From an uncultured Clostridium sp. (GTDB lineage: Bacteria > Bacillota > Clostridia > TANB77 > CAG-508): a stretch of DNA of 64,000 bases. The notes beneath the pieces are model-generated. The model was not told the DNA's origin. It searched no databases and was given only the letters and a program-made list of their open reading frames with translations. The stretch lies in NCBI GenBank assembly GCA_900554365.1, contig USGY01000002.1, forward strand, positions 54,136 to 118,135, given 5' to 3'. The translations under genes were made by a program, and so were the position numbers. Below, piece by piece: positions 13,956-44,751 of the stretch (positions are counted from its first letter, which is position 1; every line of letters starts with the position of its first letter).

Positions 13956-14930
13956 TTAATTTTGATTTCTTATCTCACCATTTTCAATTAATTTATATCT
14001 AATAAGAGCTTTACCATCCAAATCTTCTTTATGCATATCAACAGCAGTAATTTGGTGGTTATTATATGCTGTATAATAATAAATTCCTTTACTAGCATTA
14101 CAGCAAGAAGTATAAATAGTAATTTCATACTTTCCATCACCTAAATCACAACAACCACGCTGTTGATCAACAGAATTAAGAATATGGAAAAATTGACTAA
14201 CACTCTCATTCTCGCTATTTTCAGAAACAGAATTCATCTTTACAAAACTAGCCCTTATAAACCTAGATTGAGATGACAAATCTCCTGGCAATCCAATTGC
14301 TCCCATACCTCTGCTATAATATTCCAAATTCAAATTTTTAGAAAAATTATTTTCTGGTGCTTTAGGTGACAAATGCATATATTTATTTAATTCAAATAAT
14401 TGCTTATCAAAAGGAGGATTATTAGTCAACACTCCAACAGGATTATCATATACTTTTAATCCATCTTTTACCGTTTCAACAGTTATTGCCTCATCCTTAT
14501 CTGCAACAATCCAATGTAGTTGTGCCAATGGTAATTGTGGATTAAAAGAAATATTTGTTAAATTCATCCTTGCTAGTAATTCTTTTGCTTCCTTTACCGT
14601 TGAACATTTGCTTAATATCCATGGAATAAATTCAAATTGAGCAATATTATCTTTGCGCTCTTGACTAGGATTATAGCATGCATTTCCAACAAAGTTTAAA
14701 CCTGCAATTCCAAGCCCTTTTTCATTTATAGCATCATAATATAATGGATAATCTTCTGCAACATATGCCATTCCTATTATTGCATAATGGCTTTTTATTT
14801 CTTCCTTTTCTCTAAATTTAAAAACATAATTTCTTGGTGTTATTGTTATTTCATCTCCATATGAAAATTCATAATCTAATGTTCTTCCAAAATAGAAGTC
14901 TTGTGTTTTATATGTTAATGCTGTACACAT
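13956..14930 (-). CDS. choloylglycine hydrolase / penicillin V acylase family (Ntn-hydrolase, linear amide C-N hydrolase)
   Basis: The 324-aa ORF begins MCTALTY, giving the catalytic N-terminal Cys2 typical of BSH/PVA enzymes. Confidence 0.8.
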   Translation of the reverse strand: MCTALTYKTQDFYFGRTLDYEFSYGDEITITPRNYVFKFREKEEIKSHYAIIGMAYVAEDYPLYYDAINEKGLGIAGLNFVGNACYNPSQERKDNIAQFEFIPWILSKCSTVKEAKELLARMNLTNISFNPQLPLAQLHWIVADKDEAITVETVKDGLKVYDNPVGVLTNNPPFDKQLFELNKYMHLSPKAPENNFSKNLNLEYYSRGMGAIGLPGDLSSQSRFIRASFVKMNSVSENSENESVSQFFHILNSVDQQRGCCDLGDGKYEITIYTSCCNASKGIYYYTAYNNHQITAVDMHKEDLDGKALIRYKLIENGEIRNQN

Positions 14931-16574: not shown

Positions 16575-18365
16575 TTAACATCTTATCAAATTCTCTCTAC
16601 CTATTCCATTTAATTTTAAAAAACAACTTCCAATTTTAGTTGTTTCTCCCCATTTAGCAAGTCCCTTCTTGCTCATAGTAAAGTATACTTTCTCTTTTGC
16701 TCTTGTAAAACCTACATAAAAAACACTTAATTCCTCTAGGAACTGTTTTTCATTTTTGCTATTAAATGTATTTACACAATAATTATTTTTATTCTCTTGA
16801 TAACACTCTCTACATATATAATATGTCGGAAAAGTTTCTTTTTCATTATCTGTGAGAATTACATTATCATATTCCAGGCCTTTACTAGCATGTATTGTTG
16901 ATAAAATTATCTTTTCATCAACTTTATCCATATTTTGTCTTAAAGCAAAATTTTCAAAACTTTCTCTTATTAGTCTAATTTTTTCTTCTATACTAAATTG
17001 AGCATAATCGTCAAATATTCTATCACAAAAAATACTAAGAAGTTTAGTTAATGATCTAATTAAATTATCAGTCTCTTTGTAATAATTTTCTATAGCATTT
17101 ACTAATTGTTTTAATATTTTAGGAGTTACTACTTGTTTTTCTTTAATTAAAATATTAAATTTATTTAAGCATACTTCATGAAATTTTATATATTCTGGAT
17201 CTTCGTCTGTAAACAAAGCAAAAAAATACTGAATATTATTTTCATCTAATTTTTCTTTTATTTTTTGAACATTATAATCCTTTATGCCATTTCTTGACAA
17301 AATTGCTACTTTTCCCTCTTTGCTAATATCCAAAACTTTTGTACATATCCATTCGGCTTCTTTTTCTTGATTATCTGTAATAACTATATTAGGATTAGAT
17401 ATTTCTTCTATGGATGGATTATTTTTTTGTAATGCGTTTAATCTAATATTCTTATCTAATAGTAACATATCTTTATTTTCCTTAAATCTATAATTTGTTG
17501 ATAACTTAAATTTTCTCATATTAAATTCATTTTCAGCAATCTCCATTAAATTTGGAACTGCCCCAATAAATCCGTATATTCTTTGTAACGAATCACACAT
17601 TAATATTGCTTTTGTATTTTTTCCTATTATTTCTTTGATAAGCATCCATGCTATGCAATTGGTATCTTGAAATTCATCTATAAATACTATCGGGAAAAAT
17701 TTTTGATAAAAATTCTTTATTATTTTATTCTTTATTAATAATTCATATGTTAATAAAATAATAGCATTATATGTTATTTTTTGATTTACTAATAAATATT
17801 TTTTTACATATTCATTATATTTTAAATAATTATTTTGGATATATTCTTGGTCATTAATCTTTATTCTATCTTCAAAATCTTTAAAAAATTCTAGTTTTTC
17901 CCCGTCTATCCCATATTCTTTTAAGTTTTTGTCAGTTTCTTGAATAGCAGTAATAGTATTAAAATTTACATTCCCCTCTACAATAAAGAAACCATATTTT
18001 GCCAATATTTTTCTGCAAAATCCATGATAATTAGATACTACTATCTTATCAGTTTGTCTATAAGCTTCATTATGATCACATTTTATAATATTAGGCAATT
18101 GTTCCGATACATCTTTTTTTATTTTATATGATGCATTAACACTAAATGTTAATGCTAAAATTTTCTTTGTACTTTCTATATAGTTTGTGATAAGCATATA
18201 AGCTATTTTACTTATCATTGTTTTAGTTTTTCCACATCCTGCTGGAGCTTCGACAATTACTTTATCAGCTGTATCAAAAACAATTTCAATTTGATTCTGA
18301 TCCCCATTATGTATTTCAACTATTCTTTCCTTTATTTTTTCTAAATTATACATTTTTATTTGCAA
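16575..18365 (-). CDS. gajB: Gabija GajB, UvrD-like SF1 helicase
   Basis: The 596-aa ORF has Walker A APAGCGKT, the FIDEFQD block and helicase motif VI STIHASKGLEYDNVIL, matching B. cereus GajB. It overlaps the gajA stop by 20 nt. Confidence 0.85.
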   Translation of the reverse strand: MQIKMYNLEKIKERIVEIHNGDQNQIEIVFDTADKVIVEAPAGCGKTKTMISKIAYMLITNYIESTKKILALTFSVNASYKIKKDVSEQLPNIIKCDHNEAYRQTDKIVVSNYHGFCRKILAKYGFFIVEGNVNFNTITAIQETDKNLKEYGIDGEKLEFFKDFEDRIKINDQEYIQNNYLKYNEYVKKYLLVNQKITYNAIILLTYELLIKNKIIKNFYQKFFPIVFIDEFQDTNCIAWMLIKEIIGKNTKAILMCDSLQRIYGFIGAVPNLMEIAENEFNMRKFKLSTNYRFKENKDMLLLDKNIRLNALQKNNPSIEEISNPNIVITDNQEKEAEWICTKVLDISKEGKVAILSRNGIKDYNVQKIKEKLDENNIQYFFALFTDEDPEYIKFHEVCLNKFNILIKEKQVVTPKILKQLVNAIENYYKETDNLIRSLTKLLSIFCDRIFDDYAQFSIEEKIRLIRESFENFALRQNMDKVDEKIILSTIHASKGLEYDNVILTDNEKETFPTYYICRECYQENKNNYCVNTFNSKNEKQFLEELSVFYVGFTRAKEKVYFTMSKKGLAKWGETTKIGSCFLKLNGIGRENLIRC

Positions 18366-20076
18366 TCTCCTTTGCCTTATTCAAGGATTCTATATACACT
18401 TCTGGTATATTATTTTTACTTATTTGTTTTCCTAATAATCTCCCTCTAACCATGTCTTTTGTTTTCCATAGCCATGAAATTAGTATTAATTTAATCAATT
18501 CCGTATTACCTGTTGCTATAGCTTGGTTAATTGTATAATCTTTGCTAATAGTCACCTGTAGCCCTAATTTTTCATTATTTTTTTCCAGTTTTTTCTTTTG
18601 AAAATTTTTGTTTTTTCCATCTTTTTGATACAATTCAATTATTTCAACTACTTCATCTATAGCATCATTTAAAAATAATTTGTTAACAATATCACATTCA
18701 AAGTCTCTATCATTAGTATATATATATTCTTGCTTTATATCATCTCCATCATCTTTATCTAGTACACAAATAACATCTATTCCAAAATTTTTTATAACTC
18801 TCTCTATCAATGGAATAGAAGTCTTCCCTCCTGCCCCAATAATTGCTATTTTTAAATAATCTAAATCCATATTTAATTTTTGTGCAAAATATGGTATTGA
18901 GCCTATTTCTGATATTCCTTCATATATTAGCACTACACTTGAAAAGAAACTTTCCTTTATATCTTGCATATGTGCTAATAAATGTTTTTCCTCATCTATT
19001 TCGAAAGTAATATCCATTCCAGACTTTGCCAAAATCTGATTTTTTACTTTAAATAATCTAATATATTCCTTATAATTATCAGATAATATATTTGGGGAAT
19101 GTGTGCATACTATCATCTGCCCTATTAATCCGTCTAAGTTAAAACACGTTTTTAATAATTCTATGAATCCTTTATCTTCATTATTTATTATCTTTTTTAA
19201 ATTATTCATTAAATTTCTCTGCATATATGGGTGTAAATGTATTTCTGGTTCATCTAGAGCAATTATAAGTGGTAAAAACTTTTTACCTTCTTTATCTATA
19301 AATGCAATTTCTTTATCACTATCTATTTTTTTCATTATTGTATTTAATATTTCAAAAAATACATATGACATATATCTTATACCACTTCCCATATTATTGA
19401 TAGATATATTATCTTTATCACTTAGCCCAATTAATTGAGGTATAAGTTTAGTAGCATCATTTTCCAATTTAGCAGCAATGTCAAAGTTTTGTATCAAATT
19501 AATCTTATATAATAATTCATTTATACTATTTGCTACATCATTAATTTTACTTTCATCTACAACATCTTGAGATGCTATTTTATTTTCTTTTATATATTTT
19601 TCGATTATATTATTTAAAAATTTTCCAGCAGTTTTACTCTTACTAAAATTCAATTCCTCTGGTGCTTTAACTGAATTATAATACACAAAAGGTAAATTTC
19701 TAATTTTTGTATATGGTATAACTAAGTCTGTTTCTTTATGGAAAAATTCTACTCTCCCATTATTATTTTCTTGTAAAGCTACAATAGTTATTTCATTTTC
19801 TCGATTTGTATCAAATAGGTCATCAAAATACCCTATTTCCAAATCTGATAGTTCTAATTTCATATTAACTTCAATTTTCTCATTTAAGTTACAAAAGTCA
19901 TTTTCATTAAATGCTCCTCTATTAAAAATAGTATTTAATAAATCTAATATACTACTTTTCCCTATACCATTATCTCCTAATATATATGATTTTTTTGCAT
20001 TAAAATTTATATTTACATTATTTAATCCCCTATAATTTTTTATTTCTATATTTTTAATTATCATATTATTTCTCAC
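18346..20076 (-). CDS. gajA: Gabija GajA, OLD-family ABC ATPase plus Toprim nuclease
   Basis: The 576-aa ORF has an N-terminus matching GajA (IKNIEIKNYRGLNNVNINF...GDNGIGKSS), Walker B/H-loop LDEPEIHLHP, and Toprim residues (YEGISE, VLDKDDGDD). Confidence 0.9.
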   Translation of the reverse strand: MRNNMIIKNIEIKNYRGLNNVNINFNAKKSYILGDNGIGKSSILDLLNTIFNRGAFNENDFCNLNEKIEVNMKLELSDLEIGYFDDLFDTNRENEITIVALQENNNGRVEFFHKETDLVIPYTKIRNLPFVYYNSVKAPEELNFSKSKTAGKFLNNIIEKYIKENKIASQDVVDESKINDVANSINELLYKINLIQNFDIAAKLENDATKLIPQLIGLSDKDNISINNMGSGIRYMSYVFFEILNTIMKKIDSDKEIAFIDKEGKKFLPLIIALDEPEIHLHPYMQRNLMNNLKKIINNEDKGFIELLKTCFNLDGLIGQMIVCTHSPNILSDNYKEYIRLFKVKNQILAKSGMDITFEIDEEKHLLAHMQDIKESFFSSVVLIYEGISEIGSIPYFAQKLNMDLDYLKIAIIGAGGKTSIPLIERVIKNFGIDVICVLDKDDGDDIKQEYIYTNDRDFECDIVNKLFLNDAIDEVVEIIELYQKDGKNKNFQKKKLEKNNEKLGLQVTISKDYTINQAIATGNTELIKLILISWLWKTKDMVRGRLLGKQISKNNIPEVYIESLNKAKEIANKNV

Positions 20077-20084: not shown

Positions 20085-21413
20085 TTAATATTTTAAATTA
20101 TCTTCTTCTATTATTCTTATATCTGCACCTTTTTCATTTAACTCTTGAGCTTTTGCTTGTTTGCCACCTATCTTTCCAAATTTCCATGCATCGCTGCCAA
20201 CACCTCCAACTATTAAATAATCTAATTTTGATGATACTCCTGCCTTCTCTATTGCACCTAGTTCTTGTAATCTCTTAGATACTTCTTGCTTAGTAGCAGT
20301 CTTAAATTCACCTGTTAGACAAAATGTCTTCCCTTTAAAATCTATATTTTCATCATTATTAAAATCTGGATGTACTATTTCATTAAATATACTAAGAATA
20401 TAATTACTTTCTTCTTCAGTTAAAAATCCATCCTCTAGTACTTTACTTACTTCTAGAAGAACTTTGTCATAAGGATATACATCTTTTAAATAATCATTTT
20501 GCTTTAACCATATATTCAAATTATCTAACTCTTTTTGATTTACTTTTTGATTGCATACAATTCCATCTAATATTCCATTTAATATTTGTAAAGACAACGT
20601 TGATTCACTATACATTTTAGAATTATTTATACTTGTTACTAATTTTTCTAGTTCAATTCTTTCATATTCTGTAATTATATTATCCTCTAAAATTTCTTCT
20701 AATTTATTAATTATTCTATTAAATAATAAATATTGTTTATATAGTCTATTATCTTCCACCCAAGATTTAAGTTTCCCAATTTCTTTATCATCTATTATTC
20801 CATCATAATTAATTCCTTTAATTATTCCATATAATGTATTTATATTTGTTTCTAATTTTGAATCTAAGCTATCCAATACTTTACTTTCAAATTCAAATTT
20901 TTCACAACTTCCAATATCATTATTACAATTTAAATATTCAAATATTTTCTGACTTGCTTTAGCATCTTCTAATGCATTGTGATGATTTTCTAGATTAATA
21001 TTCAACAAATTACATAAATTATTTAAACTATAACTGTTAGTATTAATACAGTTTCTCGATAATTTAAGAGTACAATAATAATTAAATATAGGTACTTTTA
21101 TTTCGTAGCGTTCTAGTGCTTTTGCAATTACTGTTAAATCATAAATAACATTATGACCTATAATAATGTTATCTGATAATAAATCTTTTATATTCTCCCA
21201 ATATTCTTTAAAAGTTGGTGCATCTTTAACATCAGAATAATTTAAACCTGTTATATTACTATTATTTGTATCAAATCTATCCTCTGGATTTATTAATGAA
21301 TACTTTTCATCTACAATCTTATTATCTTTAACAATAATAATTCCTATTGAACATATTGAATTACCTCTTGCATTTGGGTTTTCTATATCAATGCTTATAT
21401 AATCTTTTATCAT
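20085..21413 (-). CDS. DEDDh (DnaQ-like) 3'-5' exonuclease fused to a C-terminal BRCT domain
   Basis: It has Exo I-III motifs (SIDIENPN, HNVIYDL, H..LEDA) and a BRCT fold signature at the C-terminus (FKGKTFCLTGEF...LDYLIVGG). Only 8 nt separate it from gajA. Confidence 0.7.
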   Translation of the reverse strand: MIKDYISIDIENPNARGNSICSIGIIIVKDNKIVDEKYSLINPEDRFDTNNSNITGLNYSDVKDAPTFKEYWENIKDLLSDNIIIGHNVIYDLTVIAKALERYEIKVPIFNYYCTLKLSRNCINTNSYSLNNLCNLLNINLENHHNALEDAKASQKIFEYLNCNNDIGSCEKFEFESKVLDSLDSKLETNINTLYGIIKGINYDGIIDDKEIGKLKSWVEDNRLYKQYLLFNRIINKLEEILEDNIITEYERIELEKLVTSINNSKMYSESTLSLQILNGILDGIVCNQKVNQKELDNLNIWLKQNDYLKDVYPYDKVLLEVSKVLEDGFLTEEESNYILSIFNEIVHPDFNNDENIDFKGKTFCLTGEFKTATKQEVSKRLQELGAIEKAGVSSKLDYLIVGGVGSDAWKFGKIGGKQAKAQELNEKGADIRIIEEDNLKY

Positions 21414-24390: not shown

Positions 24391-26166
24391 TTAAGAAACT
24401 TCTTTTTCCTTCCATTCTTCTATGTATTTTTCTATATTTTTATCCCAAATTTCATAATTTTTACAATTTATTGCTCCTTTGTGAATATATTGTAATAAAT
24501 TATTAAATTGATCTATTTCTAAATTGTTTTGATATGTGTATTCTAATATCTTCATATATTGCCCTATAGTTAAAGGAATAACTGGTACAGGATTTCCCAT
24601 CCAACTTTCTTTATTTAAGATAAAAAATTGCCACATTGTCCTAACATTTATTCTACTTGATATAAACAATCCTGTTACCTTTGTAGTTTTATGTTTTTTT
24701 ATTATATTTAATACGTGATCTATTACTGATGATGCCTCATGTTCCCATTGTAAAACTCCAGTCATTAATGATACTTCTGGTACAATAATATATTTATCAT
24801 TATATAATTCCATATCTGGCGTGTTCCCTGTTCCAGGGGCAAAATTTCTAGGTGATAAATCTTCTTCAATAGTAAAGTTTCTTTTTACATCTTTTTCTCC
24901 ATCAATTGCGACTAGTGATTTCCATGTGTTGCACTCTAGCCATAAAGCAGCCATATCTTCATCACCACTAACAATATCTTCAAACTTCTCAATGATCTCA
25001 TTTCTAATGCTTTCAGTTTTTGAAGTATATTGAATAAATATTTTTTCATTTAAACTTGTAATTTGATCTACTAATTCATTTTCTATAACTTTAAGTTTAG
25101 TATCCTTATTTCTCTTATCAAGTTCTTTATAATATAAATTACTATCATACTTTAAATCAAGTCCATATTTGCTATTATATTCGTCAATTTTTTCTTCTAA
25201 TAATATTATTTTATCAACAATTAAATCTTTACGATTCTTTTCGTTTTCCCATGGAAGTTGAATATTATCATAATCACCAAACCAGTCCATATATTCATCA
25301 AGATTCTCGGTTTTTATATAATCGTAATTATAGAAATTTTTTAACATTTCTATTTTTTTCCTTGCGTATTCTGCTATTCTAACCTTGGTATAATTTCCTC
25401 TTCCTGATATATTAAATAAACCTGTAAATCTTAGCGCTCTATTAATTGCATCGCACATTGTAAAATAAGTTCCTTCTGATTTTCCCTCTAAAGAAAAATA
25501 TTTTTCTGCAATTTTTCTATATAATGCATTACATTTATTACCATCTCTCTTATTTTCAAGAGACAAGTATTCTTTTCTAAACTCTTTTACTGCCTTTAAT
25601 AATTTATCGTATTCTTTCATATCATTACATAGTAATGCAAGACTCATTTCGAAACGATTTATATACTCTAAATCATATACTAAATTTATTATCATCTTTA
25701 ATGGAAATACTGGATTTTCATTTGAACAATTTTTTCCATACCCAGTATTTATAGAAGGAAAATGCATATTTAATAATAATTTCAGAAATATCTCGCTATC
25801 GAAATTACCTTTCGCAATCATTTTCCCGGATTTAGTAACTCTAACTTTTCCATCAGCATCAATAAATCCTAAACCCAAAAATTTATATGTTGCTAAATCA
25901 TTTCTTGCATTACTTTCGCTATCAGCTTCCCCATCAAAATTCCCACTCAAATATTCGTCATATGATAAATTTTTTATGGGAGACTCTTCTATATCTATTT
26001 GCGTATTAAAATAATACTGCCTTCTAATTGGGTGAATAGGCTTCATATTTTTACTTAATTTTTTAAAAGAATAATCCCAATCTTCTCCCTCTAGTTTTTC
26101 AAATGATTTAAACCACTGTATAGTTTTTATAACACTTCTTGGCTTTGTCCTCCAACCCCATGCCAT
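24391..26166 (-). CDS. AlwI-family (N.BstNBI/PleI/MlyI-like) type IIS restriction endonuclease
   Basis: The 591-aa ORF shares blocks that I recall from N.BstNBI: the N-terminal TKSGKMIA block matches TEAGKMLA, and the C-terminal NFTIEEDL...APGTGNTPDMELYNDKYIIVPEV block matches NFVIDEEL...AAGNQPDMEIIYEDFIVLGEV. It sits next to a Dam/DpnM-like methyltransferase. The identification rests on remembered sequence and was not searched. Confidence 0.55.
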   Translation of the reverse strand: MAWGWRTKPRSVIKTIQWFKSFEKLEGEDWDYSFKKLSKNMKPIHPIRRQYYFNTQIDIEESPIKNLSYDEYLSGNFDGEADSESNARNDLATYKFLGLGFIDADGKVRVTKSGKMIAKGNFDSEIFLKLLLNMHFPSINTGYGKNCSNENPVFPLKMIINLVYDLEYINRFEMSLALLCNDMKEYDKLLKAVKEFRKEYLSLENKRDGNKCNALYRKIAEKYFSLEGKSEGTYFTMCDAINRALRFTGLFNISGRGNYTKVRIAEYARKKIEMLKNFYNYDYIKTENLDEYMDWFGDYDNIQLPWENEKNRKDLIVDKIILLEEKIDEYNSKYGLDLKYDSNLYYKELDKRNKDTKLKVIENELVDQITSLNEKIFIQYTSKTESIRNEIIEKFEDIVSGDEDMAALWLECNTWKSLVAIDGEKDVKRNFTIEEDLSPRNFAPGTGNTPDMELYNDKYIIVPEVSLMTGVLQWEHEASSVIDHVLNIIKKHKTTKVTGLFISSRINVRTMWQFFILNKESWMGNPVPVIPLTIGQYMKILEYTYQNNLEIDQFNNLLQYIHKGAINCKNYEIWDKNIEKYIEEWKEKEVS

Positions 26167-26178
26167 GGTTTTTCCTCC

Positions 26179-27310
26179 TTAATAATTTGTTATTAACAAA
26201 TGTTCAACATCTTTATCATTTCTATTTTGAAAACTTACAAGATATTTTTTATCAAATGTTTTTATCCTAAATTCTTTTGTATTATATAAATTATAAATAA
26301 AGTCAGTATTCTTTATAATCAACATTATATTTGCTTTTGTATTTTTTAAATATTCACATAATCTCACTTGATCATTCTTGGCAAACTCATTTTTTGCATA
26401 TGTCGAAAATTCAGTATCATATGGGGGATCTAGAAAAATAAAATCTCCTTTTTTAGGTTTTACCTCTTTAAGAAAGTTTTCAAAATCATCACAATATATT
26501 TTTGTATTTGTCATATATTCTTTTATTTTCTTTGAACTTATATAGTTAATCTTTTTTATAAATTCTTTTCTATTATAGCTTATCCCTCCATAAGGTACAT
26601 TAAACTTTCCACTTTTATTATATCTAAACATAGACGCATAGCAAAATTCTCTTATAAAATAAAATATTGCTGTATAAAATGGTATACTTATATTTAAATT
26701 TTCAGCTTCGTTATACAAATGTCTAAAATGCATATAAAATGCACTTTTAAATGCACATTCAATATTATCAAGAGTATCTTTTTCACTCATCTTTTTTCTT
26801 TGAATTTCTATTTTATACATTCTATTCATTTTAGAAATTAGGTTTTTTACAATTTCATTTATAAAATTATCTATTTCAATATTAAATTCTGCAGATAATA
26901 TTCCATTAAATTCTTTAGCATGTCTTATTACAAATGCATATATTCTATCATTAAATTGTTGCTTAATCTCTTTTGTATTTTTATTATCAAGCTGTTTACA
27001 ATACTCTCTATACATTTTTAATAGCTCATCTGCATTATTTTCAACAACGCCTTCTAATAATACCCAGTTTTTATAAATAGCTTTTAATTTAGTAAAAAAT
27101 TCTTTATCTTGATTTTTGATACATTTATATAAATTTATTAATTCTTCAGATTTGTCATTTATAACTGAATTTTCAATATTTATGTCAAAATAAACTGCTC
27201 CGACCTCCTACAAAAGGCTCTATATATCTATCTATTCTACGTGGCAAATTTCTTTTTATATATGGCAATTCCTTTTCTTTTCCACCAGCCCATTTTATTA
27301 TTGGATTCAT
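26179..27310 (-). pseudogene. DpnM/Dam-like N6-adenine DNA methyltransferase (GATC class, D12 family) disrupted by a +1 frameshift near 27200-27205
   Basis: The N-terminal 42 codons (MNPIIKWAGGKEKELPYIKRNLPRRIDRYIEPFVGGRSSLF*) match the DpnM/Dam motif I (KWAGGK...EPFVGGG) and then hit TGA. The next frame continues AVYFDINIENSV...NSVINDKSEELINLYKCIK... into the annotated 278-aa ORF, which has FNVPYG and FLDPPY (motif IV) and ends ITNY as DpnM does. Removing one C from GGTCGGAGC restores FVGGGAVYFD. Confidence 0.75.
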
Positions 27311-27457
27311 AAAATTACTCTCCTTTGTTCCAATTATTTATTTTATATCACAAAATACATTTTTTAACAACAAATTATCAATTATTTCGTAATTAATTTT
27401 TATTTATCATATATTATCAAACATTTGTTTTTATTGCAATAGTTTTTATGAGATTTT

Positions 27458-31241: not shown

Positions 31242-31928
31242 TTATATTTCTTTGCAAATATTATACTCATCAATATTGTCTAGTCTTTCATAAGATTCAT
31301 CTATATATTTGTCTATATTATTAATAAAATCTTTCCACTTAACGGCTTTTATATAGCTGCATTCTCCAGAATATATTTTTTTACTTGAATCATTTTGGCA
31401 TTCCGTTTGTAATTTATCCTTTTTATTAAATTTGTTTTCTCTTAAAATTTTAAATAATTTATTCGTATAATGAGTTCTACAAAAAGAAAAGCAACATGTA
31501 TGATCTTCCAAATAATAACTATATGAATCATTACTATCTGGTAATACAACAGCTAGCATTGCATTAGTTTTACTTGTTACATCTTGTCCAGATTCGTTTT
31601 TTCTTTTAGTTTCTTTAAGTGAATATGATATTTCCCATGGTATCCATTGATTCCTATCACTTTTTCCTTCTTCTTTCATTTTGGGAGAAATAAAAACTAT
31701 AGTTAGTGTACTATCATAAATCCTATCTTTTAATTTTTCCCATATGGTATCTTCGCTTAAATTAGATAAATCTTCTCCTTCACTTTCTCCTTTAAAAATA
31801 TGATTTGAACTATCTATTCTGTTTTCTAATTCGGTAACATAGTCTCTTACAGTAGAATTTTCCCAATAATTTAAATTTTTAACATCGTCATCTGCATATT
31901 TATATGATACAAATATTTTGTGTCCCAT
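31242..31928 (-). CDS. TIR-like domain protein (DUF1863/ThsB-like, second TIR of the operon) with a Cys-rich C-terminal extension
   Basis: It has KIFVSYKYADDD at the N-terminus and the TLTIVFISPKM...WIPWEISYSL pattern typical of bacterial TIR-like domains. A 13-nt gap separates it from the ThsB gene. Confidence 0.6.
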   Translation of the reverse strand: MGHKIFVSYKYADDDVKNLNYWENSTVRDYVTELENRIDSSNHIFKGESEGEDLSNLSEDTIWEKLKDRIYDSTLTIVFISPKMKEEGKSDRNQWIPWEISYSLKETKRKNESGQDVTSKTNAMLAVVLPDSNDSYSYYLEDHTCCFSFCRTHYTNKLFKILRENKFNKKDKLQTECQNDSSKKIYSGECSYIKAVKWKDFINNIDKYIDESYERLDNIDEYNICKEI

Positions 31929-31941
31929 TTTTTTCCCTTCC

Positions 31942-32409
31942 TTATTCTTCTATCCATTTTCCAAAGTTTTCATATCCATTGTCATTTATCCAATCATATG
32001 TCTTTGCTATCTGAAAGAAATATACATCTTCTCCATTTGAATTTTTTCCTAAACTTCCAAAAGTTGTATCACCTTTAGAAGATGTTAAACCAGTTCTCAT
32101 ATCTTTTATATTGTGTATATAAATTCCTATTATTTTATTTCCTCTTTTATAACTTTGTTGAAGTTCATATCTAACGAATTTTCTATTACTAGTTTCTGCA
32201 CCTATTAACACAGCTGTAACGCTTGTTCCAATTAATTGTTCATCTATCCAATCATATACTGCCTTATCTCCTTTTGCTTTTATTTTCTCAAATTCTGCTT
32301 TATCTATAAATCCAGCATCCTTATTACCTCTTATAACCCAACTATTTCTAACAACATTTGCTCTATTTACATCATTATCATAATGAAAACTAAAAAATAC
32401 ATTTTTCAT
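31942..32409 (-). CDS. thsB: Thoeris ThsB (TIR-domain signalling protein)
   Basis: The 155-aa ORF closely parallels B. cereus ThsB: VFFSFHYDNDVNRANVVRNSWV aligns with VFFSFHYQDVIDFRVNVVRNHWV, SVTAVLIGAETSNRKFVRYEL...GNKIIGIYIHN aligns with SVTCVLIGSQTFNRRWVRYEI...GNKIIGIHIN, and the C-terminal YDWINDNGYENFGKWI aligns with YDWVADDGYNKFSSWV. Confidence 0.85.
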   Translation of the reverse strand: MKNVFFSFHYDNDVNRANVVRNSWVIRGNKDAGFIDKAEFEKIKAKGDKAVYDWIDEQLIGTSVTAVLIGAETSNRKFVRYELQQSYKRGNKIIGIYIHNIKDMRTGLTSSKGDTTFGSLGKNSNGEDVYFFQIAKTYDWINDNGYENFGKWIEE

Positions 32410-32423
32410 TTAACTTCACCTCT

Positions 32424-32900
32424 CTAAATAAATTTTAGTAAAATTGTAATACAAATAAATAATATATAAAATCCTATTACAGAAAAAGACCTTACAGCCT
32501 CTAGCATAACAGCAAAAACTTCATATTTTAAATCTGTATTTTTAGGATTCATATTATATATTTCTTTCTCATCTATTTGATTTTCATTTAATTTTTTTAC
32601 AAAATTATTATATCTTTTTCTATACATTCTTTCAAAAGCCAAATAGTAAGTATCCATAATCATTCCTACCAAAGCTATAATTAGTCCTACCCACCAATAT
32701 CCTTTTAATTCTTTAACAGCTATTAGAATAGTAATGAATATTGTATATACCACTGCTATTAACGCTTTAATATTAGCACTATTTCCACCCATTCTGCTTA
32801 TAACATTTTGTAAAAATTCTAAATAAGCAACTACTGATGAACGATCTTTTAAATCAATTATTTTCTCTTTTGCATTTATCTTTGTATTATCTTTTTCCAT
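32424..32900 (-). CDS. small 3-TM membrane protein, first gene of the TIR operon (candidate non-canonical Thoeris effector)
   Basis: The 158-aa ORF has a ~45-aa soluble N-terminus followed by three predicted transmembrane helices. A 14-nt gap separates it from thsB. It is too short to hold SIR2/SLOG or Macro domains. Confidence 0.45.
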   Translation of the reverse strand: MEKDNTKINAKEKIIDLKDRSSVVAYLEFLQNVISRMGGNSANIKALIAVVYTIFITILIAVKELKGYWWVGLIIALVGMIMDTYYLAFERMYRKRYNNFVKKLNENQIDEKEIYNMNPKNTDLKYEVFAVMLEAVRSFSVIGFYILFICITILLKFI

Positions 32901-33143: not shown

Positions 33144-34337
33144 ATGGCTGGGAGTATAGAAAAAAGAGGAAAAAATAGTTACAGGCTAACGGTATCTGAA
33201 GGATTTGACTTAAATGGAAATCCAATGATACACAGAAAGACAGTACATGGAACTAAAAAAGATGCAGAAGTTGAACTAGCAAAGTTTGTTACTGAAGTGC
33301 AAAATGGTTTAGTTGTTGATGGTAAATCTCTTAAATTTTCTGAATTTACTGAGATATGGAAACGAGATTATGGTTCAAAAGAACTTGCTCCTTCTACATA
33401 TAAACGTTATTGCAGAATGTTAGAAACAAGACTTTTACCATATTTCGGACATTTTTACATTAATAAAATTAGACCAACTGACATTATGAAGTTTTATGAT
33501 TTACTTGAAAAAGATACTCAGCTAACTAGAAAAAAAGGCAACAATGGAGAAAAAACTAAAAAGCCTTTGTCTGGTAAAACAATTTTAGAACATCATAGGT
33601 TACTTCGTGCAATGCTACACAGAGCAGTTTATTGGCAACTTATTGTTAGTAATCCTGCTGAACGTGTTCAAGCACCTAAGGCAAAAAAGCCTAAAAGAAA
33701 ATCTTATGATGATGAACAAACTAAAATATTACTAGAGAATTTAGAACAACTTTCTATAGAAGATACTAAGTACAAAGTTGCTATCATTCTTACTGTTTTT
33801 ACTGGTGTTCGTTTAGGTGAATTAATGGGATTGGAATGGCAAGACGTTGATTTCAAAAATGGAATAATCAGTATTAATCGTTCTAGTCAGTATCTATCAG
33901 ATATGGGAGTCTTTACAAAAGTTCCAAAAACAGAAAGTTCCATTAGAGAAATCGCAATACCCGAATTTATCATTTCTTTGCTTGAGGAATATAAGTTATG
34001 GTATGAAGAGCAAAAATTGATTTATAGCGAATTGTGGAACGATTCTAATAGGTTATTTGTACAAGCAGATGGCAAGCCAATGCATCCTTCTACAATCAGC
34101 AAATGGTTTGTTAGATATGTTGGACAAATTGGATTACCTGTAATTAATTTTCACGGATTAAGACATACAAATGCAAGTTTATTAGTTGCACAAAATGTTG
34201 ATATTGCAGTAATTTCTGCGAGATTAGGTCATGCACAAATAAGTACTACACTTGATTTTTATGTGCATCCACTACTTTCTCATAATAGAAAAGCTGGCTA
34301 TGCACTAGAAAACTTGTTATTACCAACAAGGTCTTAA
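33144..34337 (+). CDS. int: tyrosine-type site-specific integrase (phage integrase family), element A
   Basis: The 397-aa ORF has the catalytic motifs R...HGLRHT...LGHAQISTTLDFYVH, an N-terminal SAM-like domain, and an RBS GAAAGGAGGTG identical to that of the element-B integrase. Confidence 0.9.
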   Translation: MAGSIEKRGKNSYRLTVSEGFDLNGNPMIHRKTVHGTKKDAEVELAKFVTEVQNGLVVDGKSLKFSEFTEIWKRDYGSKELAPSTYKRYCRMLETRLLPYFGHFYINKIRPTDIMKFYDLLEKDTQLTRKKGNNGEKTKKPLSGKTILEHHRLLRAMLHRAVYWQLIVSNPAERVQAPKAKKPKRKSYDDEQTKILLENLEQLSIEDTKYKVAIILTVFTGVRLGELMGLEWQDVDFKNGIISINRSSQYLSDMGVFTKVPKTESSIREIAIPEFIISLLEEYKLWYEEQKLIYSELWNDSNRLFVQADGKPMHPSTISKWFVRYVGQIGLPVINFHGLRHTNASLLVAQNVDIAVISARLGHAQISTTLDFYVHPLLSHNRKAGYALENLLLPTRS

Positions 34338-35127: not shown

Positions 35128-35154
35128 AAAAGGCGAGAAAGTTCTCGCCTTTTA
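35128..35154. terminator. bidirectional rho-independent terminator
   Basis: AAAGGCGAGAA-AGTT-CTCGCCTTTT perfect hairpin with a T-run, between convergent genes. Confidence 0.7.
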
Positions 35155-37896
35155 TATTGAATTTATTTTATTTTTAATAAGATTAACATCTTTATTATCT
35201 TCAATATGTTTTATAGTAGATATGATTTTATTTTGGCATTCTGGAGACCAATAAATTTTTAATTTTTCTTTTGCTCTAGTTATTGAAGTATAAAAAATAC
35301 TATGCGTAATTAATTCATCAATTTCATTTGTTATTATAATTTTTACAGAATTATACTCTAAGCCTTGTGATTTATGAATAGAAACTGCATATGCAACTGA
35401 GAAAGGTACAATTGTTGCTAGATCAGAATCATTATCCTCATCAGCATTTCTATACTTATTGACATAGAATTTTACAATTGATTTATTATTTTCAGATTCT
35501 CCTACCAATTCTAAATCTAAAAATTGTATTTCTAATTCATTAATTACTTTATCTATTTCTACTGAAAACCAAAATCTAAACTCATCTTCTTCTATATCTA
35601 CAATTTTGCCTTTTAAGTTATTATATATTACTGGTGAAAATCTATTAGTATCTCCAAATATAATTGGGTCTCCCACTTTATAAGTACCTAAATCTAAAAC
35701 TATTGACTTGTTTTTATTCTCATTTTGCAAATAGTAATTTATGCTATTTATTCCATATAATCCATCATAATTTAGACAAAGTATAATTTCATCTTCATCC
35801 TGCTTTTTAAATATTTCTTCACTAATTTCTTCTGAAAATTCTTTCTTTACTAACATTTCATCCACTCTATCATCGCCATTTCTAACCAATTCCCATAAAT
35901 CTAGCAATTCTTGTTTTGTACTTCTCCATGTAAAGTTTAATTCAAATACCGATGTTGGATTTACTAATTTTTTTGATAATGTAAACCAGTTTCCAAATGT
36001 AATAGATTCAATCTGGTAAATATCTCCAGCAAGCAATATAGCACTAAAATTTGCCTTTTCTAAAATTTGTCTCATATCCAAATTACTAATTGTACTACAT
36101 TCATCAATAATTAAAATGTCACATTCAGTATTATTGTTGGATTCACTAATAAATTTATGTACTGTCATAAAATCAGAATTTTGATTATTTACATTACTTT
36201 TTAGGTTTTCAACAGCAGAATTTGTATTAGCTAAGCATATTTTTCTTTCATTACTATAAAAGTATGTCAAATGTTTAATTAGAGTAGTTTTTCCTGTTCC
36301 AGCAGCCCCATATATTAGAGCAACTGTACTATTTTCATACATATTTAATAATATATTTTCTTTTTCTGGGCAATTAATTAAGTAATTTCCTTGATTTATA
36401 AAACTTTGAAATGATGCTTTATAGCCTCTTATTCCATGATTTGTCAAGGAGTTCAACTTATTAATTATATTAATAGTGTCATCTTCATATCCATGAATAT
36501 ATAAATTATTATTTTCTATTACCAAACACCTATTAGGTTTATGTTTATAATAAATTTTATTATTATAAGAATTGACCAATGTAGGAATATCTCCAAATTT
36601 TCTAACCTCATCTATACTAGTATATAATTTATTATTTTGCTCTGTATTCTTTTTTATATAACCTGCTAATAATTCATCATTTCTACCTTCTATAGGGACT
36701 ATATCTATCAAATCATATATTGTTGGATTATGATTTATTAATGATGATGCATATGGCATTTCCTCAAATGGAATGCACCCAAATTGCAAGTATAAATTCG
36801 ATAGAATAGAACAACTATCTAATGCAAGTTGATCCTTTATAATCCTATTATTGCAATTATATAATAAATATCTTAGTACAACATGTCCTTTACTATTATT
36901 TTTTATATAATATCTACAGTTATCAATTAAATCCAATATTCCAGTTGTTGTTGAATTACTTTTTATTTTTTCTTTTATTTTATCATAATATATATCATTT
37001 ATTGTTGCTAAATCTAATAAACTATATTGTGCTTTTGTTAGTAAGCTCATAACTTCTGTATATTCTTTGTTGTTAGCTTTATATTTTTTATTAATTCCAA
37101 AAACCTTATAAAAATTATTTATTTCACATTCTCTTATAGCAACAGACCAGTTGTTTATTATATTTATTGCCATGTCTCTTCCAAGAATATTTACTTTTGC
37201 TTTAACAATAGACAACTTTATTGAATAATTTGGCATAATATGCATTCTAGTAAATGCTATAATTTTATCATACTTATTAACCTTATCTTTAGCTGGTGAC
37301 AAAGTAACTTCATAATATATTTTTCCATTAACAAAAAAAGTTTTTAATTTTTGTACATAATATTTATCTCCACTGAATTGATCAGATGTATTAGTTGGAA
37401 CCTTTTTTATTACATCAGCAACCTTTTTATAATAATCACTAAAAGTACTATCTAAATCAAGTGGAAAATCAGTTATATTATTTAGAATATCTATGTTATA
37501 CAATATCTTCATATAATCCTTCAATAATATTAGATATTTATAGTATTTAAGCATAAGTCTTTCTGCAGAATCATCGTTTTCTATATAGTGTGATCTTGAT
37601 ATCTGCAGATAATAATGGAATCTTTCAATAAATTTTATTTTTCCCCTACTTTTTATATAATCTAATGCAATTCTAACAGTTCCATTGTCGTAATTAATTG
37701 TTTCTGTCTTTCCAGTTAAATATATCTTAACAGCAATATATTCTACAAAAGTTCTTAATGCATTTAATAAGTTTTGAGATAAAAATCCGCGGTCATCATC
37801 AGAAAATTTTTTTATATTTCGTTCAATATTAGAATTAGCTTCCATTATTTTTTTATCTATACTATTAAAATCATATTTTTCTTCAATTTTTATCAT
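35152..37896 (-). CDS. large protein with a C-terminal SF1 (RecD/Dda/UvrD_C_2-like) helicase domain and a ~500-aa N-terminal region of unknown function
   Basis: It has Walker A GAAGTGKTT, Walker B ILIIDE, and the SF1 C-terminal motif SIHKSQGLEYNSVKII...FYTSITRAKEKL. The start is trimmed to MIKIEEKY, which has an RBS. Confidence 0.55.
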   Translation of the reverse strand: MIKIEEKYDFNSIDKKIMEANSNIERNIKKFSDDDRGFLSQNLLNALRTFVEYIAVKIYLTGKTETINYDNGTVRIALDYIKSRGKIKFIERFHYYLQISRSHYIENDDSAERLMLKYYKYLILLKDYMKILYNIDILNNITDFPLDLDSTFSDYYKKVADVIKKVPTNTSDQFSGDKYYVQKLKTFFVNGKIYYEVTLSPAKDKVNKYDKIIAFTRMHIMPNYSIKLSIVKAKVNILGRDMAINIINNWSVAIRECEINNFYKVFGINKKYKANNKEYTEVMSLLTKAQYSLLDLATINDIYYDKIKEKIKSNSTTTGILDLIDNCRYYIKNNSKGHVVLRYLLYNCNNRIIKDQLALDSCSILSNLYLQFGCIPFEEMPYASSLINHNPTIYDLIDIVPIEGRNDELLAGYIKKNTEQNNKLYTSIDEVRKFGDIPTLVNSYNNKIYYKHKPNRCLVIENNNLYIHGYEDDTINIINKLNSLTNHGIRGYKASFQSFINQGNYLINCPEKENILLNMYENSTVALIYGAAGTGKTTLIKHLTYFYSNERKICLANTNSAVENLKSNVNNQNSDFMTVHKFISESNNNTECDILIIDECSTISNLDMRQILEKANFSAILLAGDIYQIESITFGNWFTLSKKLVNPTSVFELNFTWRSTKQELLDLWELVRNGDDRVDEMLVKKEFSEEISEEIFKKQDEDEIILCLNYDGLYGINSINYYLQNENKNKSIVLDLGTYKVGDPIIFGDTNRFSPVIYNNLKGKIVDIEEDEFRFWFSVEIDKVINELEIQFLDLELVGESENNKSIVKFYVNKYRNADEDNDSDLATIVPFSVAYAVSIHKSQGLEYNSVKIIITNEIDELITHSIFYTSITRAKEKLKIYWSPECQNKIISTIKHIEDNKDVNLIKNKINSI

Positions 37897-37923
37897 ATTA
37901 ATTAGTCCCTTCTCATATAATGT

Positions 37924-37972
37924 AAAAAGCAAAATAATTCTGTAATATATAATTACTATTATTTTGCTTTTC
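37924..37972. repeat. AT-rich long-stem hairpin repeat (family member 3 of 3)
   Basis: AAAAAGCAAAATAAT-loop-ATTATTTTGCTTTTC, between the Fic and helicase genes. Confidence 0.55.
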
Positions 37973-37978
37973 TTTAGT

Positions 37979-38914
37979 TTATTTATTTCCAATATAATAT
38001 TTTATCATTTCTGTGTATTGATCTTGTGCATTTAAACAAGTATCTATTAAATAACCTTTTTCTTTATTAGTTTGATATTGATTTAATCCCCTATAGTAGA
38101 ATAATTTATCTTTATCTAAAATAATAAATGGTACAATATTATTTTTTAAACATTCTTTAAATGCGATTATTCTACCAACTCTTCCGTTGCCATCTTGAAA
38201 TGGATGTATCTTTTCAAATTTAGCATGAAATTCTATTATTTCATTTATTGTTTTTTGTTTTAAAGATTCATACCATTCTAATAATTTTTTCATATCTCTT
38301 TCAACATTTTTAGGCTCTGTAGTTTTTAGCCCTCCAACCTCATTCGGTAATTTTTTATAATCTCCAACTATAAACCAATCTTTCCTGCTATCTGACGTTC
38401 CCTCTTTTAATATTTTGTGAAATTCTTTTATCATTTTTTCTGTTAGTTTTTTATCTGCTATTTCTAACATATAATCAACTAATTTAAAATGATTAGCAGT
38501 TTCTAACACATCATCTAAATCTGTTACTGAGTCTTTTTCTGCTAATAATGTGTTAGTTTCATAAATATATCTAGTCTGATCTTCTGTAAGTTTACTTCCC
38601 TCAATATGATTAGTATTATATGCAAAAGTTATTTGAGTATTATGATATAAATTACCTTTTAGTTTCATTTTTTTTTGTTCTCTTAATACTTCTAAAATAT
38701 TTATTCTTGATATATCAAAAGTATCTTCTTTTATCAATTCATCTACTGATACTTCAAACAAGTCAGCTAATTTCTTTAATGATTCTATATTAGGTTCTAA
38801 AGTTCCAGCTTCATATTTGGAAATAGTTGCTGCTTTTACTCCTAATGTTTCTGCAACTTCATTTTGAGTCATTTTTTTATTTTCTCTATATAATTTTATC
38901 TTTTCTCCTAACAT
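37979..38914 (-). CDS. HTH (XRE-family) plus Fic/Doc-family protein (putative AMPylase or toxin-like)
   Basis: It has an N-terminal Cro/C1-type HTH (KMTQNEVAETLGVKAATISKYE) and the Fic motif HPFQDGNGRVGR. Confidence 0.8.
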   Translation of the reverse strand: MLGEKIKLYRENKKMTQNEVAETLGVKAATISKYEAGTLEPNIESLKKLADLFEVSVDELIKEDTFDISRINILEVLREQKKMKLKGNLYHNTQITFAYNTNHIEGSKLTEDQTRYIYETNTLLAEKDSVTDLDDVLETANHFKLVDYMLEIADKKLTEKMIKEFHKILKEGTSDSRKDWFIVGDYKKLPNEVGGLKTTEPKNVERDMKKLLEWYESLKQKTINEIIEFHAKFEKIHPFQDGNGRVGRIIAFKECLKNNIVPFIILDKDKLFYYRGLNQYQTNKEKGYLIDTCLNAQDQYTEMIKYYIGNK

Positions 38915-39023
38915 AATAAAAACTCTCCTTTTTGATTATAATAATATTATATCATATTATTTCCGAAAAAGAAAGTTTTTATTTATGTTTTGTGTAATTA
39001 TTTCCAAAAAGGAATTTGTTTTA

Positions 39024-39857
39024 TTATTCTTTATTCATATTTTCTTTTAAAGTTTTTCCATCTCTATTTTTCCATTGTGTTAATCCATTTGAATTTCTGC
39101 CTAATACCATAGCTGCTGCAGTAGATGGTGAAGAAAATATTATATCTTTTAGAAATACCCCTTGGTCTACTATTTTTTGATTTCTTAATTCATTCCATTT
39201 ATTTCTTAAAGACTGACTACTAGCTTTTTTAAACTCTTCACTACTTTGTGAACCTTTAAAAACTATAAATCCCTCTTCTGATTGAGCACCAGACGCTTTT
39301 AATCCAATAGAATTAATATAATAAATTTCTTCTTCTTTAACTTCTTGTTGCGTTAGAATCTTATCAAAAATACGATATCCATATACTGAAGTTAACAATA
39401 CTATTTTTTCATAAAATTTCACTGCTCTTATTTCATCTGCACCATCTAAAGAAGATTTTGTTGGTTCTGTATCATTATCAATAATAAATCTTTCAACTTC
39501 TTTTGCTTTTGTATATAGCATATTTTCAATAAATTTTATATGTGCTTTATTTAAAGAATTATTTTGACTAACAAATACTAAACAATCATTCCAAAAATCT
39601 TTTGTTTTATTATGTTGTAATAGTCTTTTATATATGTTTTCTGCCTCACCTATATATGCTCTATTTTCTCCTGTTTCTTCATCAACACCAAATAAAATAT
39701 ATACCCCTGTGTTTTCTATATTTTTAAGCTCTTTTGATTCGTTTAACCTATTTCTAGGAATCTTATAACTTACTCCTATCCATTCATCTAAATTGCACTG
39801 TACTATTCCAGTTGGCATTCCATTTCTTAATATCATTGTAATTACACTTGTTTCCAT
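39024..39857 (-). CDS. GIY-YIG nuclease family protein with a DUF4357-like C-terminal domain
   Basis: The GIY-YIG core is GVYILFG...RAYIGEAENIYKRL. It lies immediately downstream of the R-M-S gene. Confidence 0.6.
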   Translation of the reverse strand: METSVITMILRNGMPTGIVQCNLDEWIGVSYKIPRNRLNESKELKNIENTGVYILFGVDEETGENRAYIGEAENIYKRLLQHNKTKDFWNDCLVFVSQNNSLNKAHIKFIENMLYTKAKEVERFIIDNDTEPTKSSLDGADEIRAVKFYEKIVLLTSVYGYRIFDKILTQQEVKEEEIYYINSIGLKASGAQSEEGFIVFKGSQSSEEFKKASSQSLRNKWNELRNQKIVDQGVFLKDIIFSSPSTAAAMVLGRNSNGLTQWKNRDGKTLKENMNKE

Positions 39858-39872
39858 ATATTTTCCTCGCTT

Positions 39873-43682: not shown

Positions 43683-43796
43683 TTTATTTCCCCCATGGCA
43701 TTATATCATAAAAATTTTTTTTTGCATAGCCCTTTTCGACATTTTTTTCAATCCTATAAATTACTTATCTCAAGCATATTTTCGCCATTTTAGTGC

Positions 43797-44420: not shown

Positions 44421-44440
44421 TTTTTCATCACTTCCTTAAT

Positions 44441-44612: not shown

Positions 44613-44751
44613 TTTTATTATAAAAATTAGGACAAATATGTACAAAAATTTATACTTTCTTGTCCTAATTTTTTCATTCATTTCTATTTACTTTTTTGAA
44701 AAAATCAATTATAATTTTTATATAAAATATTTAAAAAAGTTATCTTTTTAG

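Follow-up and report, generated by a model that had tools for sequence, protein, structure and literature searches.

We describe here a restriction-modification (R-M) pair encoded in a 64,000-nucleotide stretch of contig USGY01000002.1 from an uncultured Clostridium sp. (the whole stretch is called the window below, and its positions supply the coordinates), in which the gene for the DNA methyltransferase (MTase) is split by a one-base frameshift whereas the adjoining endonuclease (R) gene is intact. The frameshift is real, old and recurrent, and the coding sequence on both sides of it is under purifying selection. The frame break is almost certainly neither an error nor the mark of a decaying pseudogene, and sequence comparison suggests that the MTase is probably expressed by +1 recoding at a GGN_CGG site, a reading to which we assign a probability of about 0.8. 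The first-pass annotation of this DNA had recognized a D12/Dam-like MTase paired with an AlwI-family endonuclease, which profile matches bear out, and had taken the MTase to be broken, which the observations presented below do not support. The parts of the pair, all on the minus strand and given with lengths in amino acids (aa) where appropriate, are the following:

27319..27325, minus strand: Shine-Dalgarno-like AAGGAGA 5' of the MTase start codon, from reading of the sequence
27203..27310, minus strand: MTase part 1, zero frame, codons 1-36 (MNPIIKWAGGK...EPFVGG), the last of which is the putative P-site codon GGT (27205-27203)
27199..27205, minus strand: proposed +1 shift site GGU_CGG_A, made up of GGT (27205-27203), the extra C (27202) and GGA (27201-27199)
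27185..27187, minus strand: zero-frame stop codon TGA ending the 41-aa non-shifted product, from reading of the sequence
26179..27201, minus strand: MTase part 2, +1 frame (GAVYFDIN...FNVPYG...DPPY...LLITNY), with the stop codon TAA at 26181-26179
26167..26178, minus strand: 12-nucleotide spacer between the two genes, GGAGGAAAAACC, which bears the ribosome-binding site of the R gene
24391..26166, minus strand: intact gene for an AlwI-family (N.BspD6I-like) type IIS endonuclease or nickase of 591 aa, assigned from profile matches and matches to relatives of solved structure

The zero-frame open reading frame (ORF) of the MTase (27310..27185) encodes only 41 aa, MNPIIKWAGGKEKELPYIKRNLPRRIDRYIEPFVGGRSSLF (MNPIIKWAGGK...EPFVGGRSSLF), and the remainder of the gene, encoding GAVYFDINIEN onward, is open in the +1 frame from just 5' of the zero-frame stop region to the TAA. 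The frame break is caused by a single extra C within GGTCGGAGC, where there is no homopolymer or repeat; this arrangement, N-terminus, TGA and continuation in the +1 frame included, is as originally described. The C falls inside the S-adenosylmethionine (AdoMet) motif I, FxGxG (GGT[C]GGA), and yields a zero-frame Arg codon, CGG (27202-27200), overlapped by a +1 Gly codon, GGA (27201-27199). When it is deleted, join(27310..27203, 27201..26179) encodes a 376-aa protein with the motif I sequence EPFVGGGAVYF; the peptide that crosses the frame junction in the +1 product is YIEPFVGGGAVYFDINIENSVINDK. Only after this correction do motifs X-I...IV reside in one polypeptide (EPFVGGGAVYF at residues 32-42, DPPY from 26430), whereas zero-frame translation gives FVGGR at motif I and terminates shortly afterwards. 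The repaired protein matches the profiles PF02086 (MethyltransfD12; 6.5e-36, 124.8 bits against a cut-off of 22) and TIGR00571 (dam; 186.4 bits against a cut-off of 114.85) and aligns with DpnM (2DPM) at 4e-29, so that the whole-domain profile places it among the predicted N6-adenine DNA methyltransferases of the D12 class (Dam/DpnM, alpha group). Between motif I and FNVPYG the MTase contains a segment of about 130 aa that DpnM lacks (MTase residues 78-208 align with DpnM 88-114); this insertion of some 100 aa relative to DpnM, noticed already in the first reading, is common to the whole 377-aa family, the best 120 of 7,887 homologues being almost all 376-377 aa long.

The 591-aa partner (26166..24391) belongs, by its sequence, to the AlwI family. 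It matches PF09491 (RE_AlwI) at 1.4e-37 over model positions 3-441 of 441, the nearest relative of known structure is the large subunit of N.BspD6I (PDB 6qnz/2ewf; 1e-22 over residues 71-586), with which the catalytic PD...E stretch (GN.PDME...EV...E) aligns, and the PADLOC model 'Type II nicking endonuclease' recognizes it at 5.7e-26. The R genes are full length and show a ratio of nonsynonymous to synonymous divergence (dN/dS) of 0.07-0.13; together with the intact ORF this is indirect evidence of site-specific cleavage or nicking and makes it unlikely that R, too, is inactive, as had been considered. The exact R protein has no record in the assembly index. Shortened R genes were observed in two related loci (L numbers designate such loci and contigs throughout), once beside an intact MTase (L068, 509 + 69 aa; L068:6146-7915) and once beside a frameshifted one (L085, 551 aa; L085:3970-5625), which indicates that R is occasionally lost whatever the state of the MTase.

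The frame break recurs far beyond the window. The exact 41-aa ORF was found on 12 contigs, and 116 assembly blocks of the index contain the exact downstream ORF of 278 aa; the source assemblies are independent and derive mostly from human-gut metagenomes, and both ORFs were present in each place that was read. All 16 independent contigs that were fetched carry the identical string CCTTTTGTAGGAGGTCGGAGCAGTTTATTTTGA, and the metagenome contig L067 also carries the site. A scan of one genome per GTDB species yielded 63 loci with relatives of the MTase, among which the one-base insertion, in the form GGAGG[T/G]CGGAGC[A/T/G]GT, occurs in five species-level metagenome-assembled genomes (MAGs) of gut Clostridia (L010, L012, L014, L019 and L026); the same C insertion is present in the Logan contigs L001 and L002. 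MAGs with frameshifted alleles include CAPYID01, CAOKHL01, CAOJCG01, CANOYI01 and CATLUC01. The alleles from these MAGs and Logan contigs are 90-96% identical to each other at the DNA level, and the group as a whole, which we denote FS1, comprises at least 8 distinct alleles from many samples and at least five species-level MAGs. Another metagenome pattern match (L066) was rejected as a chance occurrence in high-GC DNA. The closest intact allele is only 94% identical to that of the window, with none higher among 5.8 billion clustered proteins, and therefore the frameshifted state is stable and not one position of a switch. The frameshifted MTase adjoins three kinds of R, namely AlwI type A (about 97% identical to the window R), AlwI type B (57%) and an HNH enzyme, and also occurs in varied flanking contexts. 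A dead antidote gene would not be expected to accompany live toxin genes through such swaps of partner.

Two further groups of frameshifted alleles, FS2 and FS3, were found through short N-terminal ORFs in the protein database, after which the DNA was read. The three groups differ as follows, with the inserted base in square brackets on its own:

FS1 (the window clade; window, L001, L002, L010, L012, L014, L019, L026, L067): GTA GGA GG[T/G] [C] GGA GCN, C after the second Gly codon
FS2 (L090/L091 and L092/L093; two alleles, two samples each): GTT GGT GGA [C] GG[A/T] GC[A/T], N-terminal peptides 68-80% identical to that of the window
FS3 (L094, L096, L097; 3 alleles): GTA GG[G/T] [C] GG[A/T] GG[G/T/A] TC[T/G], C one Gly codon earlier

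Every one of these insertions creates a zero-frame CGG after a Gly codon (GGN_CGG), and in every lineage skipping the C leaves exactly three Gly codons, as in the native FxGxG. In the protein tree, FS1, FS2 and FS3 fall into three separate clades, each with intact sister alleles, and FS3 must be independent because its C lies at a different codon junction; the sequences thus point to at least two origins of the C insertion, three being more likely. The repaired full-length proteins of L090, L092 and L096 have 377 aa each. Synonymous divergence (dS) among the FS3 alleles is 0.7-1.5 with dN/dS of 0.04-0.07, and the two FS2 alleles differ at dS 0.86 with dN/dS of 0.15. Two short database proteins, P0146 (46 aa, on 36 contigs; EPFVGGAFFACRKML) and P0139 (50 aa; EPFVGCKSTRIGLKSRI), are N-termini of distant D12 MTases that end just past motif I; judged from these peptides, they may represent further frame breaks at motif I in other families.

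The frameshifted alleles bear the signature of a translated gene on both sides of the break. Once the C is removed, every full-length allele is a clean ORF of 376 or 377 aa, and no second lesion was detected in the full-length frameshifted copies that were checked (six FS1 alleles, L090, L092 and L096). Pairwise dN/dS among the six FS1 alleles is 0.06-0.12 (mean 0.09) at dS of 0.15-0.50 (Nei-Gojobori), indistinguishable from the mean of 0.08 among the intact alleles, and in codons 1-38, 5' of the shift, the changes among frameshifted alleles are mostly synonymous. Random substitutions simulated at the observed divergence (65-113 differences) left the ORF free of stop codons in no more than 0.3% of the trials. 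The base that first varies 3' of the shift (AGC-A/T/G) leaves the amino acid unchanged in the +1 frame, in which GCA, GCT and GCG all encode Ala, but would give Ser, Cys or Gly in the zero frame, which indicates that reading is already in the +1 frame immediately after the C. The following +1 codons (GCN GTN TAY TTY) are conserved as Ala-Val-Tyr-Phe, whereas the zero-frame tail and the position of its TGA vary freely (RSSLF, RSGLF, RSCLF, RSSLFGYKY, RCCVF, RRVCIF). Decay in this MTase family has a different appearance: L095 (L095:56-1191) has an A inserted before the first Gly codon, giving a zero-frame AGG, and a second frame break, and L053 (L053:5698-5729) has a frame break near residue 235. 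These two genuinely decayed copies can serve as pseudogene negative controls for the family.

Codon usage offers a plausible basis for a shift at this position. Among the 49 long ORFs of the window, CGG is the rarest of the 61 sense codons (1 of 18,217 codons, 0.05 per 1000; 1 of 620 Arg codons); most of the related loci lack it, and it accounts for 9 of 33,331 codons in the loci with intact alleles. GGA is the commonest Gly codon of the window (31 per 1000), with GGT at 12 per 1000; GGC is rarer than GGA, and among Arg codons AGA is the commonest. The MTase site is the only one of the 106 CGG trinucleotides in the window that links an upstream zero-frame ORF to a long +1 ORF. The lone in-frame CGG is codon 401 of 403 in the ORF at 56618-57829 on the minus strand, two codons before the stop, a position that fits CGG being almost unusable in this organism. 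Judged by codon usage, the site conforms to a hungry-codon +1 arrangement, in which a slow A-site codon is overlapped by a codon with an abundant tRNA, and the rarity of CGG would explain why the inserted base must be C. Ribosomes would read the first 36 codons in the zero frame and then stall, with GGU (in other alleles GGG or GGA) held by peptidyl-tRNA-Gly in the P site and CGG waiting in the A site, because CGG is the rarest codon of these Clostridia, whose DNA has a GC content of about 25%. An abundant Gly-tRNA would then read the overlapping +1 GGA (GGU in some alleles), skipping the C and giving the motif I sequence FVGGGAVYF and the complete 376-aa D12 adenine methyltransferase, whose role would be to shield the host against the AlwI-family endonuclease encoded on the same transcript; without the shift, translation would terminate after 41 residues. 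The route we infer is either A-site out-of-frame decoding of the Ty3 type or P-site slippage at GGG_C. Where the P-site codon is GGG (L010, L012 and L094), the tRNA could also re-pair on GGC; since a tRNA on P-site GGU or GGA could not re-pair, Ty3-like decoding in the A site would be the common denominator.

Two other ways of crossing the junction were tried and rejected. Slippage at UUU_UGA_C, a prfB-like sequence five codons downstream, is incompatible with L001, which has TTTGGA there, with the product FVGGRSSLF, in which motif I is broken, and with the conservation of the +1 frame already from GCN onward. A +4 hop from Gly to Gly would need four Gly codons, and the lineages keep exactly three after the C is skipped.

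Several points weigh against +1 recoding at GGN_CGG or against parts of the evidence for it. What indicates a trans-frame product is the evolution of the gene, and what indicates scarcity of tRNA-Arg(CCG) in the hosts is codon usage; the tRNA scan found no tRNA genes in the window, and the window together with 50 loci yielded no tRNA-Arg information. Shift efficiency may be low because +1 re-pairing is not available at GGU_C and GGA_C. No stimulator is evident around the site: the AGGAGG 5' of it is confined to the FS1 clade, where it shares bases with the P-site codon, FS2 and FS3 having no such sequence, local folding of the RNA is ordinary (z = -0.75), and Rfam gave no match, although a stimulator is not obligatory at hungry-codon sites. 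A lower dose of the MTase in a live R-M pair is, moreover, counter-intuitive. Finally, L019 groups with intact alleles and the MTase genes are mosaic, so that the argument that all divergence postdates the insertion is weakened for L019, and the site has likely moved between backgrounds by recombination or been lost by reversion.

To our knowledge, obligatory +1 frameshifting in bacteria is essentially limited to prfB and a handful of candidates, and the hungry-codon corrective shifts that we know of as textbook cases come only from yeast retroelements and animal mitochondria. In prfB, which encodes release factor 2 (RF2), the shift occurs at CUU_UGA_C, with a stop codon in the A site, perfect re-pairing in the P site and a Shine-Dalgarno sequence 3 nucleotides upstream, and serves the autoregulation of RF2. 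The MTase would resemble prfB in being a bacterial gene with an early, obligatory +1 shift (codon 26 in prfB, about 37 here) that gives the only functional product, and the window clade also has an upstream Shine-Dalgarno-like sequence; the MTase site nevertheless lacks the hallmarks of prfB, both CUU_UGA_C and the Shine-Dalgarno sequence at 3 nucleotides. We found no R-M methylase expressed by ribosomal frameshifting in the literature that was searched, including the 2013 GeneTack survey and the 2016 recoding review.

Close parallels come from mitochondria. In glass sponges, +1 shifts occur at rare CGG_(A) or UGG_(A) codons that arise when a base is inserted immediately before GGA (Atkins et al. 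2016, PMC5009743); the review interprets these sites as Ty3-like and notes the use of peptidyl-tRNA-Gly by Polyrhachis ants (PMC5009743). Hexactinellid mitochondria, bird and turtle nad3 and Polyrhachis share with the MTase a single inserted base (T, rarely C) 5' of GGA that is skipped to restore the protein, and the mitochondrial corrective shifts likewise have no obvious RNA stimulator and sites kept over long evolutionary times. The mitochondrial cases, however, are organellar and affect respiratory-chain genes under relaxed selection, whereas the MTase site resides in mobile elements of bacterial chromosomes, in a toxin-antidote-like R-M pair, coexists with intact alleles and arose repeatedly at one motif. 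Ty3 itself offers a slow A-site codon overlapped by a +1 codon with an abundant tRNA, and re-pairing of the peptidyl-tRNA is unnecessary (PMC5009743), but systems of this type are eukaryotic and Ty3 requires a 3' stimulator, of which none is evident at the MTase. Among bacterial sequences, the cassette GGT CGG C of Escherichia coli yehP raised +1 frameshifting in reporters (2009, PMC2790909), an effect that was explained by tRNA for CGG being in short supply compared with that for the +1 Gly codon (PMC2790909). It has the same GGU_CGG pair in the P and A sites and an upstream Shine-Dalgarno-like GGAG; the difference is that yehP is an intact gene from which the shift yields a truncated by-product, whereas in the MTase the shifted product would be the sole functional protein. 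Within R-M systems, rare in-frame AGA and AGG Arg codons slow the synthesis of the EcoVIII restriction endonuclease (Mruk et al. 2019, PMC6456624), which sets the level of an R-M component in translation through rare Arg codons, as proposed here, but without a change of frame. Phase-variable R-M methylases also use frameshifts in mod or MTase genes to alter R-M output; these depend on a repeat tract and switching at the DNA level, whereas the MTase described here has no repeat and no near-identical intact allele.

Of the alternatives to a +1 shift at a hungry CGG codon, the one that fares best, and which we still regard as improbable, is another form of recoding, by a tRNA-Gly with an enlarged anticodon loop that decodes the quadruplet GGNC, or by correction of the mRNA through slippage in transcription or through editing. 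It would accommodate the observation that in all cases a C is skipped and the codon before it encodes Gly, and glass-sponge mitochondria do have a tRNA-Gly with a 9-nucleotide anticodon loop at comparable sites (PMC5009743). A special tRNA would, however, be needed in many host species, whereas the tRNA-Gly(UCC) genes near related loci are ordinary by ARAGORN; there is no homopolymer on which RNA polymerase could slip, and the rarity of CGG already explains the choice of C.

Somewhat less probable again is a two-piece enzyme, in which the C-terminal protein is initiated on its own and either assembles with the 41-aa peptide into an active MTase or has some other function, with no frameshifting involved. 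Purifying selection on both parts is what such an arrangement would produce, and gene callers do start a second ORF in some alleles, for example at TTG in L001, giving the 337-aa P0086. Yet no start codon is conserved near the junction, the first +1 ATG, GTG or TTG of the window lying 62 codons downstream, at 27015, and the break inside FxGxG leaves motif I in neither piece. Conservation of the +1 Ala-Val-Tyr-Phe directly after the C, next to a zero-frame tail free to vary, and the restoration of exactly three Gly codons by all three types of insertion are likewise difficult to reconcile with two separate pieces.

That the MTase is a pseudogene, inactivated recently, with R also inactive or another methylase protecting the host, is also very unlikely. 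A frameshift amid motif I would ordinarily kill a D12 MTase, the family includes both truly decayed members (L095, L053) and shortened copies of R (L068, L085), and the window encodes a type IIG R-M methylase elsewhere. Recent inactivation, proposed earlier, is nonetheless excluded by the divergence of the frameshifted alleles, which have accumulated dS of up to 0.5 with dN/dS of 0.06-0.12 on both sides of the shift and no second lesion, the chance of remaining stop-free being at most 0.003; R is equally constrained, and the cassette has changed its R partner and genomic context and yet kept the C, which arose in separate lineages. The earlier suggestion of another Dam-type methylase that compensates finds no support in the window, which contains no second D12 MTase, and compensation would in any case leave the purifying selection on the MTase unexplained. 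A weak tblastn match at 18066-18257 that might have been a second Dam-type gene lies in the UvrD/GajB helicase and is due to chance. As for a sequencing or assembly error, single-base indels are the commonest assembly artefact and the window alone would be insufficient to exclude one, but an identical, non-homopolymeric site in 16 of 16 contigs from different studies and assemblers, with exact ORFs on 12 contigs and in 116 index blocks, that follows phylogeny, being present in certain clades and absent in their sisters, eliminates this explanation for practical purposes.

If the MTase is indeed expressed by +1 recoding at GGN_CGG, the question arises what the insertion is for. The intact and frameshifted alleles share the element backbone and the ribosome-binding site (L068-L072 compared with the window; AAGGAGA also precedes intact alleles, for example that of L068), and the insertion can therefore be viewed as a heritable dimmer that scales MTase translation by the efficiency of the shift. 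Its purpose is most likely a low, tRNA-dependent level of MTase relative to the endonuclease, although it could also be a tolerated corrective shift. By analogy, selected tuning of the ratio of MTase to endonuclease (M:R) could have its nearest R-M precedent in the control of EcoVIII by rare Arg codons (PMC6456624). Whether GGN_CGG_N is a selected regulatory device of mobile R-M cassettes that makes MTase output depend on the supply of the scarcest tRNA, tRNA-Arg(CCG), is a more speculative proposal, which we consider conceivable but doubtful. Under it, tRNA-Arg(CCG) may even be absent from the hosts, which would make CGG a near-unassigned codon and a dedicated shift signal; a literature search for CGG as an unassigned codon in Clostridia returned nothing relevant. 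Were the proposal correct, the M:R ratio would respond to host identity, growth state or the tRNAs that an infecting phage brings or destroys, an ordinary type II R-M pair would become a conditional, more aggressive or abortive defense, and the recurrent origin at the Gly tract would reflect selection for tRNA coupling. More generally, the MTase would provide a bacterial example of hungry-codon shifting, frequent in human gut metagenomes and located in a gene on whose dose it depends whether the restriction enzyme kills the host. Such genes are now annotated as pseudogenes or split ORFs, which means that R-M and methylome inventories of gut Clostridia would miss active methylases; GGN_CGG_N could be used as a simple, searchable recoding signal for low-GC bacteria, and the pair as a tractable system in which the M:R ratio is set in translation and in which the contribution of rare-tRNA supply to defense can be addressed.

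The target of the pair deserves separate comment. GATC is under-represented in the window (ratio 0.58) and GAGTC is not (0.96). The specificity for GATC or GGATC is an assumption, given that R is closest to N.BspD6I, a GAGTC nickase, and that other alleles of the MTase pair with PF09520 (TdeIII/HinfI-type) and HNH enzymes. The MTase family adjoins at least four unrelated types of endonuclease: two AlwI-family subtypes, PF09520 (TdeIII/HinfI-type), HNH, and HNH plus Mrr_cat. Pairing with so many unrelated enzymes suggests that the methylase is modular and that the enzymes have a short target in common, possibly GANTC and not GATC. The partner endonuclease ORFs of the MTase relatives are located as follows:

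L008:6143-6949
L090:1727-2545
L092:1288-2106
L007 and L014: the downstream ORFs

The R-M cassette occupies the cargo slot of an integrative element that consists of a tyrosine integrase (33144-34337), an HTH_17 protein, a phage replisome organiser, a DnaC-like ATPase, a 224-aa protein and then the MTase and R genes, followed by a PDC-S48 DEDDh exonuclease and Gabija GajA/GajB. The M-R region had no megablast hits in phage and plasmid collections; IMG/VR was scanned with the patterns of the FS1, FS2-type and FS3-type sites and, at the protein level, for relatives, and these scans were empty as well, so the element is not a recognised virus. The other defense-related features of the region are:

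16575-20076, minus strand: Gabija pair, GajA of 576 aa (AAA_15 and OLD-type TOPRIM; PADLOC 7e-176) overlapping GajB, a 596-aa UvrD helicase (PADLOC 1e-192)
20085-21413, minus strand: 442-aa DEDDh (RNase T-type) exonuclease with a C-terminal BRCT domain, candidate defense family PDC-S48 (3.6e-34)
31242-32900, minus strand: two ThsB-like TIR proteins (228 and 155 aa) and a PDC-M50A protein, adjoining the tyrosine integrase (33144-34337, plus strand)
35152-46084, minus strand: second, related integrative element, whose replisome organiser/DnaC-like module is 40% identical to that of the first

No ThsA was seen beside the TIR proteins in the window, and the TIR and PDC-M50A genes may constitute a PDC-M50 system rather than Thoeris. 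The second element encodes a 207-aa protein with 77% identity to the 224-aa protein that precedes the MTase, and the same cargo slot after it holds a 1269-aa type IIG R-M enzyme (PADLOC 4e-225) along with a GIY-YIG/DUF4357 protein, an HTH-Fic protein and a PDC-S53 helicase of 946 aa. This conserved gene (207/224 aa) seems to mark a hotspot for defense cargo. The window also encodes a choloylglycine (bile-salt) hydrolase (13956-14930, minus strand; PF02275, 5e-104), consistent with a gut Clostridium host.

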